A DNA stretch of 64,000 nt, taken from the NCBI GenBank assembly GCA_964248365.1, contig CAXTYC010000003.1, forward strand, positions 32,001 through 96,000, given 5' to 3'. This document shows, piece after piece, positions 14,132-21,559 of this stretch (the stretch's first letter is position 1; each line of letters begins with the position of its first letter). This DNA is from an uncultured Chroococcidiopsis sp. (GTDB lineage: Bacteria; Cyanobacteriota; Cyanobacteriia; Cyanobacteriales; Chroococcidiopsidaceae). A program made the position numbers and the translations under genes. The notes beneath the pieces were generated by a model. The model made no database searches and had not been told where the DNA came from. It worked only from the letters and a program-made list of their open reading frames with translations.

Positions 14132-15313
14132 ATGTATTTAAAAAGTCTACATCTGAGGCATTTTCGTAACTACCAAGATCAGCAAGTTGATTTTATTGCG
14201 CCAAAAACAATTTTGGTAGGTAATAATGCTCAAGGAAAATCGAATTTGTTGGAAGCGGTGGAATTGCTGGCGACGTTGCGATCGCACCGAATGGCGCGCG
14301 ATCGTGATCTAGTGCGGGAAGGAGAAGCCGCAGGACAAATTACTGCCACTCTAGAGCGTCAAACTGGCATTGTTGACCTCGCTCTTACATTACGCCGTCA
14401 AGGTCGTCGTAGTGTTGCGCTCAATAGCGAGTACTTGCGGCGACATCTGGATTTTTTGGGTGTTTTGAACGCTGTACAGTTTTCCAGCCTAGATTTAGAA
14501 CTGGTGCGAGGGGGACCAGAACAACGCCGCCACTGGATAGATACGCTGTTAATTCAACTTGAACCTGTTTACGCCTATATATTACAGCAATATAACCAGG
14601 TGTTGCGACAGCGAAATGCTTTGCTCAGAAGGAGTCAGGAGTCAGGTAGGGGCGGGTTTAACCAGGATATTAGTGGGACGACAAGCAGGCTAACAAACCC
14701 GCCCATACAGGAAGAGTTGGAGGTGTGGAATGCTCAACTTGCAGCTGTGGGTTCAAGGGTGATTAGAAGGCGATCGCGTGCTATAGAAAGATTAGCTCCA
14801 ATTGCCACTGCTTGGCATACCAGTATTAGTGATAGTACAGAAATATTGCAAGTAAAATACGCGCCGAATGTTCCTTTCACCCAAAATCATCCCGAACAAG
14901 TGCAACAGGCTTTTTTAGAGAAAATTGCCACAAGAGCGATCGCGGAACAGCATCAAGGTACAACTCTGGTAGGTCCCCATCGAGATGAAATTGAGCTAAC
15001 GATCAACCAAACTCCAGCACGTCAATATGGTTCGCAAGGTCAACAGCGTACCTTAGTCTTAGCACTCAAGCTAGCAGAACTCAAACTAATCGAAGAAGTC
15101 ATCGGAGAACCACCGCTTTTACTTCTAGATGACGTACTAGCTGAACTCGACCTTAACCGCCAAAACCAACTTTTAGAAGCAATTCAAGACCGCTTTCAAA
15201 CCCTGATTACCACCACTCATTTAGGTTCATTCGACTCTCAGTGGCTCAAAGCATCGCAAATTCTAACAGTTGAGGCGGGACACCTATCACCTCATTCCAT
15301 GCCCAGATTGTAG
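14132..15313 (+). CDS. recF: DNA replication/repair protein RecF
   Basis: [17 protein letters not shown] (Walker A), [24 protein letters not shown]. Confidence 0.98.
14646..14708. repeat. 63-bp palindromic element inserted in-frame in recF
   Basis: GTAGGGGCGGGTTT ... AAACCCGCCCATAC; encodes [21 protein letters not shown]. Confidence 0.85.
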
Positions 15314-15369
15314 CCACCCATGCCCACCACATAGAACCCACCACATAGAAATAATAAAAAATCATGCGC

Positions 15370-15399
15370 AGAAGAGACGTAATATATTACGTCTCTTCT
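15370..15399. repeat. Perfect 30-bp palindrome, variant of the GTAGAGACG...CGTCTCTAC REP-like repeat; possible terminator
   Basis: agaagagacgtaatatattacgtctcttct. Confidence 0.8.
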
Positions 15400-15611
15400 A
15401 TGTTGGTTGCCCCTTCGTAAATTCCCTAGGACTAGATCGATCAACTCCAGCGGTCACGGCTAGGGTCGCTCATGTACTTCACGGAAGTCCCCCTGAAATA
15501 GCGACCCTAGCCGTAAGACCGCACAGTCAAGATCGGGCTAGTGATTGCATGATCGAGCTAAACGCAAGGACAGCGATCCACCGTCCAAATTGCAAGGCTG
15601 TTTCCCAACAT
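15400..15611 (-). ncRNA. Putative retron msr-msd non-coding RNA (type XIII / Mx162-like)
   Basis: Terminal inverted repeat ATGTTGG (15400-15406) / CCAACAT (15605-15611). On the minus strand, CAGCC follows the 5' arm (candidate branch G at 15598), then short msr-like stems, then a long msd-like hairpin (15431-15542) with a 15-bp perfect core. It lies immediately downstream of a WGR-ARM and SWIM gene pair. Confidence 0.72.
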
Positions 15612-15625
15612 TAGCGCGTGATTCG

Positions 15626-17263
15626 TCAGTATTGACGAGCGTGTTGCATTCGCAACGCGAGAATGTGTTCGCAAGGACCCTTATACAGCTTATTCTGTAT
15701 GTGCCAATTGCAACTACATTCTGCGTTTATTATACGCTCATCTGCATCAACTGTCAAGGCTGGGTTGTAGGTTTTTTCCCGCTCTTTGACACTGCCTTGC
15801 AGGGTAAACGCGCCTGTTGCATCACTGGTTACAGATTTTACCTCTACATTGTTGTAAACCAAGAAACGAGTTGCTTTTTCTTCTCGTTCATTGGCAAAAC
15901 GCAGCCTTTCCATTGGTAAAGGTTTGCGGCTGAGTTCTCGCACTCGATAAACTTGCTTATTCAAGTCATAAATGGCACGTCCGGCTTGGGTATATGCCCC
16001 TAAAGCACCAAGAATTACAACTCGGTTTAAACCTAGCCTTTGTGCCAGACTATCAGGGCTTTCTACCCAATTCTTCTTCAGTTGGTCAAAAATGTGCTGC
16101 TGTGTCCATTTATCTACATCAGCACGAGGAGCCATTAAGTCAAAGTTACCAGATTGTGACCAATCGTTTGCCGTCCAGCCTGATAAACCGAGGGTAAAGG
16201 ACATATCGCCTAAGTCGGCGACATAAAAAGAAGGCATACCCGTACCCAGCAGGTGAACAGTAAACTTTTTGGCGATGGGGATGAGACGTTCTAAAATATT
16301 TATACGACGACGACCCCAAACGCGAATTTCTTGTTCTTGTGTACCAGTGTAAGGCGATCGCGGACACACTACTTCAATTCCCCAAGGATCGAATATCACC
16401 CGCACTGGTTGCCCTGGTGTAAGATGATAGCGCATACTGCGTGGTCCTTTCTTTTCTTTGTGACGACGCAAGACAAAGCAGATATTGTGAATATCCATCG
16501 GATGCAAATCAAACCGCGTCGCTGGTAAAGACATGGCGGAACTAACTTGCAAAAAGCCTCTTACCCAACTATCAGGTAAATCGATTTTGACTTCTTTAAA
16601 ATCCTCTTCATTGGTAGTTTGAACTTCAAAGCCTGATGGATCAATTTCAAATTTGGTAGTCTTATAACTGCGGATTTTTTGAAACTCATCATACAGGGCG
16701 GCTGAGTAGTCGATATTGGTAGTACCGCAGGCAAATTCGTTGATATTTTTAAATACTTCGTAACTAGCACTCAGTCGCCCATAACTTGATTCATCTTGAC
16801 TGAAACATTCAAAAAAGACTTCATCAGGATGAACTGTAATTACTGGATCTAGGACAAACCAAGCATCTCGATCTTTTTGATAAAGATAATCAAAGTAGCG
16901 GCGTTGTGCTTTGTAGAAAGGTTCTCTGCGTTGGTAACTATTTTGATTTAGATGATTGAGTTCTGATTGTAATGATTTGATGCGATCGCTTACTTCTTTG
17001 CGTTGGGCTGCTACTAATTGCCAGTCTATTTCTTGTTGCTTAGCTGCCCATTCTTTGTACGCTGTTTTGTCTTTTGGTTTGAATCGTAAGTCTGAGACTA
17101 CGACGTTATGTAAGGCGCTAATTGCTTCACGAAATGCTACGTTTTGGCGTAATTCTCCGATAAAATATGTTGGTGGGCGCTTGGTGTCTGGGGAGAATGT
17201 CATCTGGGTATTAGCGCCGTCGTTAATTGAGGTATTTCCTTTGTAGGTGTAGTTGAATTCCAT
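15626..17263 (-). CDS. SWIM zinc-finger protein (wH-SWIM type, putative retron type XIII accessory)
   Basis: C-terminal CSC-x12-CEH (AECSCNWHIQNKLYKGPCEHILAL); DPVITVHPD..FFECFS.DESSYG and DLPDSWVRGFLQV motifs. Confidence 0.85.
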   Translation of the reverse strand: MEFNYTYKGNTSINDGANTQMTFSPDTKRPPTYFIGELRQNVAFREAISALHNVVVSDLRFKPKDKTAYKEWAAKQQEIDWQLVAAQRKEVSDRIKSLQSELNHLNQNSYQRREPFYKAQRRYFDYLYQKDRDAWFVLDPVITVHPDEVFFECFSQDESSYGRLSASYEVFKNINEFACGTTNIDYSAALYDEFQKIRSYKTTKFEIDPSGFEVQTTNEEDFKEVKIDLPDSWVRGFLQVSSAMSLPATRFDLHPMDIHNICFVLRRHKEKKGPRSMRYHLTPGQPVRVIFDPWGIEVVCPRSPYTGTQEQEIRVWGRRRINILERLIPIAKKFTVHLLGTGMPSFYVADLGDMSFTLGLSGWTANDWSQSGNFDLMAPRADVDKWTQQHIFDQLKKNWVESPDSLAQRLGLNRVVILGALGAYTQAGRAIYDLNKQVYRVRELSRKPLPMERLRFANEREEKATRFLVYNNVEVKSVTSDATGAFTLQGSVKEREKTYNPALTVDADERIINAECSCNWHIQNKLYKGPCEHILALRMQHARQY

Positions 17264-17363
17264 ATTTTAGATGGGATTGGTTGGGGGGAAAGATTAATTT
17301 TGACGAACCGCAGAGGCACAGAGAACGCAGAGGTAAGAATAGAGAGGAGATAGGAAGTGTATT

Positions 17364-20300
17364 TTAGTTTCTGAGTTGGGCTACTGGTTTTAGGTGGAGG
17401 GGTAGGGATATTTGAGGATAGGTTTTGCGAATTTTTAGCATGATCTGTATGGCTGCTGCTTTGTCTCCAATTGCTATAGTTGCAGATTGTCTGGTGAGAA
17501 TTTCTGCAACGAAGGAGGCGGCTTGCTCGTTTTTTTGGGCTTCGGTTTCCAGAAAGGCAAGAATTCTCTGTTTGGCGACTCTGCCGCGATTGACGCTAGA
17601 CAATACGCTGATGAAATAAGGTGTTAGTTGTTGTAGGCGTTCGGGGTTATCTATGGCGTAGTTTTCTAGATAGTTAGTAGCAAACATCTGCATATCGGCT
17701 GAGGGATGTTCGCTGAATTTGAGTAGGTATTCTTGTCCATAATTTTGTTGAAAGTTGTGAATGACTAAATCGCGCCCAAAAGAGCGGACATCTTCACGTA
17801 TACTGTCACAAATGCTAACTATTACTTCTGGTGTCCAATCTTGGGCTGTGAAGTCGTTACTAAAAATTCTGGTTGCAAATTCGCGGGAGTCATCCCATTT
17901 TGACTCTAGTAATCGCACGGCAGATAACATTTGTTCTGAGTTTGTGCGAATATGATTTAAATTTCGCACAAACATTTGTCGTGCTGCTTCACGTATGGCT
18001 ATAATTTCGTGATTTGCAAGTTTGACTATTTCGCTGATTTGGAATTCGGGTAGGAAGCGCTCGCTATTTTCTTGCAATACTAAACCACCCAATTCTTGGG
18101 CAGAGGAAGATTTAGCATGAAGTAGCAACATGGCTTTGTCTTTACTTATATTAGACATCCAATTCGGTATGTCTTCTCGTAGCAATTGCACTACATATTT
18201 ATGAATGCCTTCGTGTCTTTCTGGTGCGATTAATACATCGATTAAATCAGAGGCGATCGCACTGGCAAAGTCTGTATTATTATTTGCTAAGCGTCGAATA
18301 ACTGGACGAATGGCATGACGAATATCAGTGACGGCGTTAATTGCCATTGCTGTTATTAGTGTGCGATCGTTTAACAATTTCTCATCAGGTAATTGTCCAA
18401 AAATTCTCACACCAATACCACGTACTGATTCATAAGGAGAAGCAAGCAGTGATTCAATTAAATTAGGTGGTAAATCAACTGCCCTCGTTTCGTGGTTAAG
18501 TAAAATACGAGCGCCTAATTCTTGAATTTTTGGCATTGGGTGTCGCAGTAAGTCTAAGATGACACCAAATCCTAAGTTACGCAGTTGGGGTGTAAAGCTA
18601 ATTAGCAAAGTCTCGCCAATTTCTTTCGCCATATAGGTTTGAGTGGGTTCAAGTGCTAATACAGCAGCGATTATGCGTCCAATTAGTACCCTGGCTGTGG
18701 CATCATCTAAAATTGAGGAACTTAACAACCTACGGGCAAAAGCACGAGTATCAGCTTGTTTACTGGTGACTAAGCTGGCGATAAACTCGCTGGATGTAAA
18801 AAAGTATTCGCGTTGCGCTTCAATCCAATGGTAAGCTTGTGTACGAGCGTTTTGTGATATGCAATTGGCAGCAGCTAAAACTAATGTTTGATTAGGTTGG
18901 GCTGGGTTGTAGCGAGTAACTGCCAGCGAAAAGGCAAATTCGACTGTAACTTCGTAGGGTTTATTTAGTAGTAGGATGATGGTGTTGATGTCGAGGCGAT
19001 CGCAAAATTCTGTACTTGTCCGTATCGCTTTAGCGGCAAAATGATGTACAGGGCGACAGTCACTTTCTAATAATAGTTGTAATAGTGCTTCTGGGTGTTG
19101 TTGCCAAAGTTCAGGAAACGCTTCTTCTCTTACATTCGGTTCTGGATATCCTGGTTTGTAAGTTTCTTTGCAACGCCATGCTTTGGGATGGGAAATATAG
19201 CGCGGGCTGTTTTCGTACAGAATATGATTAAATGTTAAGTATGGCGCATAATTATCCCAAGATATGGTAATGCGATCATAGGAACGGCGTTGCTGATTCC
19301 ATCTTGTAAAGCTTGTTTGTCTAACTGGTTGAGCATCCCGATCAGAATACTGAAGCAAAACGCCTACAGCCATTTTTACATATTCAGGATCGCCCTCTTC
19401 GCCCAACTGCTTAAGAGTACGCCACACCCGCCGCCGCAAATATTCACGAGTTTGTTTACTGTAAGCTAGTCTTGCATTAGGGCGCTGCATTTCTGCTTCA
19501 AACTCGCTGATTCCGAGAGTTTCCCATTGGCGTGTTGTAGAGTTGTATCTATTATTTTGTGTTCTTAAGTACTCACCGCCTGGGAGATAGACGTAATACC
19601 CATCACTGTCATAATTTCCCGATTCTTTCTCAAACGTATAAGCAAGAATGCCAAAAATTTCTGCATCGTGGCGATATTCAGCGATTTTGAAAATGTGGCG
19701 AATTTGCTTGAAATAGTTAGGTTTAAGTGGCGCTTCGCATAAAATATCTAGTAGTGCTGGACGTACATATTCGTTATCGATTTGATAGATAGTATCGAGA
19801 ACGGCAAAACGTTTGTAATCACTGCTGTCTAAATAAGTTTTTAGTGCTGCGGCGAATGCGTCTGCTGATCCATTCTGAGCTAATTTTGATAGAGATGAGG
19901 GTAGGCGATTTATGCATTCTGAACGCGCTGCTTTAGCATTTTGATTTGATAATTTTAGTAATGCTTCAAAAGCAATCCGACGAACAAATGCAGGGTGAGA
20001 AGCATTAGACAGGCGTTCGAGGCTAGCGATCGCATATTCATCCCCACACCAACCCAACGCCCAAGCAATACAATAATCTCTCAGGGGTTCGCCAGTGCCA
20101 ATTAGCTCAATTAATAACGGTGTGGCTTCCTTAATTTTCAGTTCTCCAGCCCGCCAAATCACTCGATCTAAAGACCATTTTCTTTCGTCTCGATTCGCAA
20201 GCCGATTTAGAATAGCCTGATGGCGTGGATCACTACTGGTGAGTGTTACATCTGTGCGAGTTGTGACTAGTGCGGGAGTATTACTAATTGGTTGATTGGT

Positions 20301-20537
20301 AGTATCTTGGTAGCCTTTTTTAACTTTTTCTCTAACTAGCTGCTCGAAAACTCGCTCTGCTTCGGCTAGTGGTACAGGCTGGGTTGTCTTCGTTCCTTCT
20401 TTGAGGTTAGTACCGCGTCGTCCATAGCGAAAGTTTACCACATAGCGGTTTTGCCCCGTCTGGCATAAATCAACTTCGTAGACTTTATCTGAACTTCCTT
20501 CTTGATAGCACAGCGTAGTCCGTTTGATTAGTTGCAT
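17364..20537 (-). CDS. WGR-domain plus ARM/HEAT-repeat protein (putative retron type XIII accessory)
   Basis: N-terminal WGR domain (SSDKVYEVDL...VNFRYGRRG...K.KKGY) then helical repeats (YCIAWALGWCG, VRRIAFEAL). Start set at ATG 20537 with GGAG SD; the upstream ORF extension is MITE-derived. Confidence 0.85.
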   Translation of the reverse strand: MQLIKRTTLCYQEGSSDKVYEVDLCQTGQNRYVVNFRYGRRGTNLKEGTKTTQPVPLAEAERVFEQLVREKVKKGYQDTTNQPISNTPALVTTRTDVTLTSSDPRHQAILNRLANRDERKWSLDRVIWRAGELKIKEATPLLIELIGTGEPLRDYCIAWALGWCGDEYAIASLERLSNASHPAFVRRIAFEALLKLSNQNAKAARSECINRLPSSLSKLAQNGSADAFAAALKTYLDSSDYKRFAVLDTIYQIDNEYVRPALLDILCEAPLKPNYFKQIRHIFKIAEYRHDAEIFGILAYTFEKESGNYDSDGYYVYLPGGEYLRTQNNRYNSTTRQWETLGISEFEAEMQRPNARLAYSKQTREYLRRRVWRTLKQLGEEGDPEYVKMAVGVLLQYSDRDAQPVRQTSFTRWNQQRRSYDRITISWDNYAPYLTFNHILYENSPRYISHPKAWRCKETYKPGYPEPNVREEAFPELWQQHPEALLQLLLESDCRPVHHFAAKAIRTSTEFCDRLDINTIILLLNKPYEVTVEFAFSLAVTRYNPAQPNQTLVLAAANCISQNARTQAYHWIEAQREYFFTSSEFIASLVTSKQADTRAFARRLLSSSILDDATARVLIGRIIAAVLALEPTQTYMAKEIGETLLISFTPQLRNLGFGVILDLLRHPMPKIQELGARILLNHETRAVDLPPNLIESLLASPYESVRGIGVRIFGQLPDEKLLNDRTLITAMAINAVTDIRHAIRPVIRRLANNNTDFASAIASDLIDVLIAPERHEGIHKYVVQLLREDIPNWMSNISKDKAMLLLHAKSSSAQELGGLVLQENSERFLPEFQISEIVKLANHEIIAIREAARQMFVRNLNHIRTNSEQMLSAVRLLESKWDDSREFATRIFSNDFTAQDWTPEVIVSICDSIREDVRSFGRDLVIHNFQQNYGQEYLLKFSEHPSADMQMFATNYLENYAIDNPERLQQLTPYFISVLSSVNRGRVAKQRILAFLETEAQKNEQAASFVAEILTRQSATIAIGDKAAAIQIMLKIRKTYPQISLPLHLKPVAQLRN

Positions 20538-20607
20538 CCGGTTGTCTCCACTATTGGTATTTAATAGTATATGTGTACTAATGTGCAAAGGGTAGGGGTG
20601 GGTATAA

Positions 20608-20776
20608 CTTAGATCTTGCATCTTTCCCATAGTCCGCCTGCTAATTAATTAGCAGGCTCACAGCCAAAGTCTTCTTAAGAAGACTACATTGGGTTGCAGT
20701 CCATTGAAATGGACTTGAGCTATTAGCCCAAAAAAGAAGTAAGGGGCGGTGATTGAAACTGGCGCAATATGTAAAT
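20608..20776. mobile_element. MITE-like element with internal palindromes (copy 1)
   Basis: Near-identical to 53551-53820; internal palindromes gcctgctaattaattagcaggc, agtcttcttaagaagact, agtccattgaaatggact; imperfect TIR cttagatcttgca / ggcgcaatatgtaa. Confidence 0.75.
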
Positions 20777-20811
20777 ATAATCAAATCCAGTTATAGCAAA
20801 TGATGTATAAC

Positions 20812-20885
20812 CTCGTAACTAGGCTCACTTCATACTAGGCTTGAGCTTAGTTACGAGCGTTACCCAACTTACGCCTGGTAACGAG
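20812..20885. repeat. REP-like double hairpin (CTCGT(A/T)AC...GT(T/A)ACGAG family)
   Basis: ctcgtaactaggctca...tgagcttagttacgag then cgttacc...ggtaacgag. Confidence 0.65.
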
Positions 20886-20902
20886 TAACCCGTCACTACA
20901 GG

Positions 20903-21559
20903 CTAAGGATTGATTTGACTCAAAATCACTTTCAAGCGATCGTAATCGTCTTTAAGTAGTACGCTCAGAGTACGTCCTGCTTTAACTAACCACTCTCTTT
21001 CTGCTTTGCGTAGCTGATAGACTTGTCGAATTGCAGCTGCTATTAAGGCTTCTATGGGCGCACCTTTCACTTCTAACAAAGTTCTTAAAAAATCTAGCTG
21101 TTCGCTGAAGAAAATAATATCTTCTGGTTGGCAACGGTAAACAGCCTGATGAATTTGAGGCGGACGAGGTGGAAGATATTGATAAATCTGGCGCCCCGCG
21201 CGTTTTGAAGCTTTTTCCGGCTCAAATCCGACAATAGCAGCTCGAAACTCGGTTTTGAGCATAGCGAAGATCTGGGGTTGTTGCTCTCGCAAGTCTTGTA
21301 AAGACAACCCTAAAGCCCTGGCTCGATGAATTGAGTCGATGGGCATGGTGGTAGCATAGTATACTACGGCGTATATTTGATTACCTGACTCTTCATCCCT
21401 GGACTTTACCCAGCTACCAAATGGGGGCATAACTGGGAAACTCAATTCATCTGGTTCTAAGCATTGAGCTAAAAATTCAGTCGTGGCGGTTTCGATCACC
21501 TCAGCTAGGTAGTCTGGGTGGCGATCGCCTGTGGCAAATTGGGGTAGGGGAAGGCGCAT
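20903..21559 (-). CDS. HAS-barrel domain protein (conserved cyanobacterial)
   Basis: AEVIET.TTEFLAQC, PPFGSWVK, P.DS.HRARALG, PP.PPQIHQAVY. Confidence 0.8.
   Translation of the reverse strand: MRLPLPQFATGDRHPDYLAEVIETATTEFLAQCLEPDELSFPVMPPFGSWVKSRDEESGNQIYAVVYYATTMPIDSIHRARALGLSLQDLREQQPQIFAMLKTEFRAAIVGFEPEKASKRAGRQIYQYLPPRPPQIHQAVYRCQPEDIIFFSEQLDFLRTLLEVKGAPIEALIAAAIRQVYQLRKAEREWLVKAGRTLSVLLKDDYDRLKVILSQINP

Follow-up and report, generated by a model that had tools for sequence, protein, structure and literature searches.

Where is the reverse transcriptase (RT) of a retron that shows its template RNA and both effector genes but no RT beside them? The question is raised by a locus in the window, the whole stretch of 64,000 nucleotides that was analysed (G000:C3:32001-96000, G000 being the source genome, GCA_964248365.1, and C3 the window's contig). 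Retrons are usually defined by an ncRNA and an RT that are contiguous (PMC7736814; this and the other papers are cited from parts of their text), and they are mined as contiguous ncRNA-RT cassettes. Judged from its sequence, the locus is very probably one half of a type XIII (Mx162-like) retron that is split into two transcription units and functions in trans. Such a split breaks the usual rule, as far as gene order tells, that a retron's enzyme and its template RNA are encoded side by side.

Effector genes and the junction with recF

The genes of the window look cyanobacterial, and the nearest named loci are from cyanobacteria. Three elements stand in a row on the minus strand, facing recF: the gene for a WGR-HEAT protein at 17364-20537, that for a SWIM protein at 15626-17263, and, at about 15355-15622, a structured RNA. 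Both effector reading frames, described as intact in the earlier note, are so by their ORFs and by PADLOC: the SWIM_XIII protein has 545 aa (PDLC02972, E 7e-248), and the WGR-HEAT/ARM protein has 1057 aa (WGR_XIII, PDLC02973; Pfam WGR, HEAT_2), with its start at the ATG at 20537, where homologues begin with Met, rather than at 20630 as given by the ORF tool. Two neighbours lie outside the system, namely the convergent recF (14132-15313, plus strand; ORF, Pfam SMC_N) and, on the other flank of the inserted module, a HAS-barrel gene (20903-21559, minus strand; Pfam). Other genes follow recF in all five relatives examined, and an empty site is seen in one X7 contig, which joins 15292 to 20932 without the module (85% likeness, single contig). 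A promoter scan of 15250-15750 gave no sigma-70 site. Short tandem or dispersed heptamer-like repeats with many partial matches in the genome occupy 15314-15350, just after recF, and similar repeats lie upstream of the remote RT described below (L004 810-845).

The junction letters reported earlier were borne out: on the minus strand, GAAGGGG (15416-15410), CAACCAAC (15409-15402), and AT (15401-15400) are followed by a perfect 30-bp palindrome (15399-15370), with 56 bp on to the recF stop at 15313. These letters had been read as a Shine-Dalgarno-like motif, a spacer, and the beginning of a start codon left by a missing RT gene, a label that does not hold. AT is followed by A, giving ATA, and the GAAGG motif, far from a leftover ribosome site, forms the conserved ncRNA 3' end in 44 of 44 aligned homologues. 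Nor does an RT begin at this place in relatives; in the 13 loci where no more than 150 nt separate a GAAGG motif from the start of an RT, the ATG comes 45-107 nt downstream of the motif, never 8. A ribosome-site and start-codon scar at the ncRNA end was rejected, the motif and AT being the ncRNA's own conserved 3' pairing arm.

The retron ncRNA and its palindromic insertion

The RNA (15355-15622, minus strand) has retron-type anatomy, with paired a1/a2 ends, a short msr stem-loop, and a long msd hairpin. Its stems, which the earlier note had thought intact, lie in a region that folds at z = -8.1, and the 44-sequence alignment holds compensatory change in 33 of 46 pairs. A covariance-model search of the source genome returned one match, so the ncRNA is single copy there; Rfam gave one match on the region, at chance level. 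The a1 arm (15594-15622, minus strand) pairs with an a2 arm in two pieces. The proximal piece (15400-15416, minus strand) is the segment formerly taken for ribosome site, spacer, and AT; its CCAACAT pairs with ATGTTGG (15611-15605), so the AT at 15401-15400 belongs to the a2 arm, while its GAAGG faces CCTT(G)C. The distal piece, GCGCATGAT with a U-tract (15356-15369, minus strand), is complementary to ATCACGCGC at 15622-15614. TACGAAG is invariant at the 3' end of the aligned homologues, a T-run follows the a2 arm in 39 of the 44, and the distal arm with its U-tract is the probable 3' end of the transcript. Across 43 homologues, cognate a1/a2 duplexes average -25.3 kcal/mol vs -12.6 for cross pairs, and the cognate arm is the best partner in 31 of the 43.

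Between the arms, the alignment fold places the msr stem-loop at 15564-15593 (helices 1-2) and the long msd hairpin, the predicted msDNA template, at 15431-15542 (helices 3-6), both on the minus strand; the complement of the hairpin folds as DNA at z -5.1. The G at 15593, invariant in 44/44, is a candidate branching G: its place is suitable, yet in the RNAalifold structure it is base-paired within the msr stem. The alternative, the CAGC G at 15598, is not conserved. Two ncRNA copies per genome occur in G042, G081, G097, G228, G257, G270, G283, and G388, and also in G030; often one copy lies behind SWIM and one ahead of RT, and their msd stems differ.

The palindrome (15370-15399) is inserted inside the a2 arm, and GCGCATGAT and the T-run resume past it. 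It belongs to a dispersed (GT)AGAGACG-N-CGTCTCT(AC) repeat family with 23 copies in the source genome vs 0-1 for six permuted controls. It resembles the cyanobacterial GTAG-tagged REPs, dispersed palindromes of 20-40 bp with GTAG ends that often lie between convergent genes (PMC3733652), but this copy has lost its GTAG end and no family was assigned. The insertion weakens the a1/a2 duplex of this copy to between -12.4 and -17.1 kcal/mol, vs the mean of -25.3. Of 114 distinct ncRNA tails, 4 have a similar element no more than 90 nt from the ncRNA end, among them those of the nearest split relatives, G012 and G018; with such an element in these two as well, the insertion may date far back in this lineage. 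As a general cause of the split it was rejected, only 4 of the 114 tails having one; its part in separating RT from ncRNA here is neither shown nor needed and cannot be told.

A remote type XIII RT

The statement that the window holds no RT was confirmed by a whole-genome Pfam search, which gave 14 RT matches and none on contig C3. The RT is, however, not absent from the genome: one of the 14 matches is an intact enzyme of 467 aa on contig C24, outside the window (G000:C24:41805-43208). It matches PADLOC RT_XIII over residues 2-464 (E 2e-200; 665 bits vs 332 for the next model) and carries NAQH, YADD, and VTG, in line with the retron RT motifs NAxxH, YADD, and VTG (PMC6868368). It is a clade 10 RT with an extended N-terminus and the sole type XIII RT of this genome; type XIII corresponds to RT clade 10, with Retron-Mxa1/Mx162, Mxa2/Mx65, Sau1/Sa163, and Nex2/Ne144 (Mestre et al., 2020, PMC7736814). 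Group II intron-like RTs, which 13 of the 14 matches appear to be, were rejected as partners, the two that were scanned having failed to match RT_XIII; these 13 lie on C7, C8, C15, C18, C37, and C68, and most are broken or in pieces.

Whatever the order or orientation of the contigs, at least 84 kb separate the ncRNA from the RT in the source genome. No partner gene and no second ncRNA were found near the C24 RT, which has more than 36 kb of other DNA on each side. The leader of this RT is homologous to the leaders of linked RTs in two relatives (G040, G051), and the RT promoter therefore predates the move. The gene that flanks it has other neighbours in the five relatives examined. Both halves of the retron have moved, since in G012 both the module and the RT sit at places other than in G000. 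In three relatives (L035, L036, L039) the RT is followed by a gene with a similar sequence start, which we take to be vWA-like; it is absent behind the RT of the source genome.

The separation is real and not an artefact. Collapse of the assembly at 15314-15420, removing an RT, might be imagined from the repeats at the junction and from a draft of 102 contigs, but, as far as contigs can show, its probability is close to nil: a single X2 contig from an independent run (85% likeness for placing it) covers 14735-19241 in one unbroken stretch, about 95% identical, that leaves no space for an RT, the C24 RT has its own long flanks, and 8 other genomes have the two parts split on a single contig. 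Three readings had been offered in the earlier note; the split retron whose RT acts in trans is the one that stood, while deletion of the RT and function without reverse transcription, both weighed below, did not. Its further suggestion, of effectors that are not toxic in the absence of msDNA, is unsupported, as RT and ncRNA are both present.

Distribution of linked and split retrons

A census was made of 401 genomes of the order with completeness of at least 95%; these genomes are kin, so co-occurrence among them is not independent. The SWIM gene is found in 80 of the 401 and an RT match in 94. Twelve of the latter were set aside, their sole RT match being without the first 95-140 query residues and none having SWIM or WGR; the remaining 82 are the 80 SWIM genomes and two with RT only, both drafts of 250-500 contigs. 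All 80 SWIM genomes have an RT (damaged in three: G112, G157, and G205) and a WGR-HEAT gene, and 78 have a full ncRNA. In 58 of 81 module loci WGR is close to SWIM, and it was found in 31/31 SWIM genomes searched whole, which cover the remainder, vs 0/14 other genomes. With the covariance model, a strong ncRNA match was obtained in 20 of 22 SWIM genomes (weak in G205, none in the fragmented G380), and 43 SWIM-negative genomes gave no strong and 7 weak matches. Of the same genus, 6 genomes were searched, and none yielded the type XIII system.

The nearest distance between ncRNA and RT is graded over the 80 genomes: at most 300 nt in 18, 0.3-5 kb in 18, 5-33 kb in 3, and, with both parts on a single contig, between 369 kb and 2.8 Mb in 8. 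The parts lie on different contigs in others, with a colinear lower bound of at least 10 kb in 24 and of 3-10 kb in 5, and with 2 unresolved; 2 genomes are without a full ncRNA. Separation thus amounts to at least 10 kb in 34 of the 80, and to as much as 2.8 Mb, where 31 of the 80 placements are on different contigs of draft genomes and 7 of these have lower bounds under 10 kb. In four genomes (G288, G166, G083, G053) all four parts sit in four places. Among eight loci with non-cyanobacterial titles, partner genes adjoin the RT in 7, which have it within 600 nt of SWIM, in contrast to C24; the eighth ends 1.2 kb downstream without an RT. Linked and unlinked states interleave, changing 11 times on the RT tree and 13 times on that of SWIM (76 genomes; unrooted FastTree trees, with all cross-contig cases scored as unlinked and the counts somewhat inflated). 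The graded distances suggest that insertions behind the ncRNA terminator came first and relocation afterward.

Twelve genomes without SWIM or WGR have clade-10 RTs that lack the N-terminal extension and measure about 350 aa or, where other extensions are present, 580-750 aa (L046, L047-L052), possibly a separate sub-type; six of the twelve have a weak ncRNA match just downstream, not upstream, of the RT (L277-L280, L282, L283). That extension-less clade-10 RTs occur without SWIM or WGR suggests that the extension may be the part of the RT that binds its partners. Three named Calothrix-group genomes have two complete type XIII loci each (L310 and L360; L309 and L355; L354 and L363).

Selection on the separated parts

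Rates of substitution indicate that the split RTs stay under purifying selection. RT dN/dS is 0.07-0.22 in 13 measurable split pairs vs 0.06-0.15 in 9 linked pairs, one more split pair being saturated and two including a genome whose ncRNA stayed beside the RT. YADD and VTG are found in 80/80 intact RTs. Distances on the RT and SWIM trees are correlated, with r 0.88 over all genomes and 0.84 over the split ones. In one near-complete genome, G205, SWIM, WGR, RT, and ncRNA are all damaged together (L143, L219, L236, L281). Two genomes, G112 and G157, speak against such coupling, since their damaged RTs have intact partners.

These data bear on the two readings in which RT and module no longer belong together. 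Were the module an orphan, decaying since the RT was deleted at the palindrome, the RT on C24 would be an unrelated relic. The interrupted a2 arm speaks for this, as does the similar element at the same place in G012 and G018, but it is highly improbable: against three linked genomes, the source genome gives dN/dS of 0.10-0.12 for RT and 0.07-0.08 for SWIM, its RT groups with those of G012 and G018 on the RT tree, most split loci are without the palindrome, and no RT starts at this position among the linked loci. Slightly less far-fetched, though still very unlikely, is that the ncRNA and the two proteins function without reverse transcription and the RT is kept for another reason. Two genomes with a damaged RT beside intact SWIM and ncRNA (G112, with one internal stop; G157, with a partial match) agree with it, as does the interrupted a2 arm of G000. 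Against it, the RT is undamaged in 77 of the 80 SWIM genomes, its catalytic motifs are invariant and its dN/dS low in split genomes, and the covariation of a1/a2 and msd is that of an RT template. The split retron acting in trans is the reading carried forward.

LexA-type boxes in both leaders

Both halves of the retron carry a LexA-type box in the source genome. One, AGTACACATATACT, lies 28 nt before the WGR start (20566-20579, minus strand) with 1 mismatch to the cyanobacterial consensus AGTACWNWTGTACT (PMC3091678); the other, which abuts a TATAAT, lies 39 nt before the remote RT (C24:41752-41765) with 0 mismatches. Each box falls in a promoter region. The genome also has lexA, recA, and ssb, whose own boxes of this kind are placed much like published ones (PMC3091678). 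A box with at most 1 mismatch occurs in 0.24% of 2500 sampled ORF leaders. Allowing 2 mismatches, 15 of 81 RT leaders and 14 of 76 WGR leaders have one, vs 0.9% of the 2500 sampled leaders. The WGR-leader box also occurs, at this same place, in an independent contig that has another flank. By these counts the boxes are real but a minority trait among relatives; because both leaders carry boxes in only 6 of 73 genomes, they do not explain most split cases, and LexA control as a general explanation of splitting was rejected.

Predicted structure of the SWIM protein

SWIM_XIII is predicted to hold a PCNA-like, two-domain clamp fold at about residues 33-364, with a coiled-coil insert, followed by a winged helix and a SWIM zinc finger, whose motif CxCx12CxH is found in 79/79 intact copies. 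The model, built from a 115-row alignment, has pLDDT 89.8, vs 34.5 for a single-sequence fold. In VIA-align it superposed on 3aix_A across 215 residues (rmsd 2.6 A, Z 16.3), with 38 clamp-type rows (PCNA, 9-1-1, DnaN) ahead of the first other family at Z 8.6; Foldseek agrees on the clamp fold (E 2e-8). The likeness to these clamps is one of fold alone and shows no function; SWIM_XIII differs in its 5-13% identity, its coiled-coil insert, and its fused winged helix and SWIM finger. The prediction extends to all members of the family, whether their retrons are split or linked. A sequence search of solved structures gave weak winged-helix matches only, and the Atlas gave SWIM clusters only. Prediction of an RT-SWIM complex scored 0.28 vs a mark of 0.32, without folded controls.

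Comparison with known retroelements

We filed the system as a split variant of type XIII, because every part is a type XIII orthologue yet ncRNA and RT in the source genome neither adjoin nor form one transcript. Shared with type XIII are the RT with its N-terminal extension, SWIM (cluster 114), WGR-HEAT/ARM (cluster 216), and the msr-msd ncRNA, as well as the order WGR-SWIM-ncRNA-RT of linked loci and the tendency to vertical inheritance (PMC7736814). By contrast, RT and ncRNA here are not contiguous and apparently not co-transcribed, the RT lies beyond the 30-kb window of that study, some relatives have all four parts apart, and there are LexA-type boxes; for SWIM, Mestre et al. (PMC7736814) proposed a transposase-like DEDE motif, whereas the model obtained here has a sliding-clamp fold.

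Retrons of the orphan Retron-Eco5 (Ec107) branch also have an RT without an adjoining effector, and trans effectors were raised there as a possibility, but they keep the ncRNA with the RT and their hosts are mostly without effector homologues (PMC7736814), whereas in cyanobacteria it is the RT that has parted from the ncRNA, with the known partners retained. CRISPEY editors showed that a retron RT can act on a separately expressed msr-msd (PMC6868368); theirs is an artificial supply in trans, while the cyanobacterial split is natural and recurrent. Cyanobacterial DGRs likewise act on a distant locus, but with another class of RT and other chemistry, and with RT and template together and the target remote (PMC8867640). 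The comparison literature also includes PMC10849725 and PMC13712802, the consulted part of which mentions neither cyanobacteria nor action in trans. Our literature search, with most subscription journals outside its scope, found no account of split or LexA-controlled type XIII retrons or of a clamp fold in SWIM; for split retrons the statement excludes the supplement of PMC7736814, which possibly lists neighbourless cyanobacterial RTs.

Possible mechanism and role

Established here are the anatomy, the remote intact RT, the co-retention, the selection, the boxes, and the predicted fold. From these we infer separate transcription, reverse transcription in trans, one assembled complex, and induction by DNA damage. 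The ncRNA would end at its own a1/a2 stem and U-tract, and because of this the RT, apparently already under its own promoter in linked relatives, could relocate along with that promoter. The RT would find the msr in trans, prime at a branching G, and copy the msd hairpin into msDNA; RT and msDNA would then form one assembly with SWIM, through its clamp fold a likely DNA-related partner, and the WGR-HEAT scaffold, and the LexA boxes would place both halves under one DNA-damage switch in this lineage. Binding to DNA breaks is a property of the WGR domains of PARPs, and SWIM proteins have roles in recombination. The most likely role within the trans reading, given about an even chance, is that of a surveillance complex which would sense damaged or foreign replicating DNA and arrest the cell, with RT and msDNA as its restraint.

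A second role within the same arrangement, distinctly less probable, is that of a domesticated, SOS-induced aid to DNA repair or replication restart rather than to defence; further roles take up the rest of the probability. Domestication would suit the fact that nearly all 80 genomes have each part only once, the congruent RT and SWIM trees, the scatter of parts among housekeeping genes, the LexA boxes, the clamp fold, and the retention of effectors that were free to be lost. It would also suit the vertical inheritance and possible non-defence roles of type XIII noted by Mestre et al. (PMC7736814). However, the distribution is as patchy as that of a defence system (80/401 genomes, none of the 6 of the same genus), and characterised retrons, in the literature consulted, are anti-phage. 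Only tentatively, then, may the cyanobacterial type XIII retron be regarded as a domesticated, DNA-damage-inducible machine of four separately encoded parts, LexA-controlled in some lineages, in which a PCNA-like clamp protein and a WGR-HEAT scaffold would employ msDNA in repair or in the surveillance of replication, and not as a device for phage-triggered suicide.

Parts that are unlinked yet retained together mean that neighbourhood-based tools miscall orphan RTs and orphan effectors. The natural separations allow tests of function for Mx162-type retrons, whose function is unsettled in the literature consulted, and the clamp fold and LexA boxes yield the concrete hypothesis that the signal may be DNA damage or replication. 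Further LexA-type boxes in the source genome stand before uncharacterised genes at C17:43053, C25:18072, C26:44325, and C17:33419.
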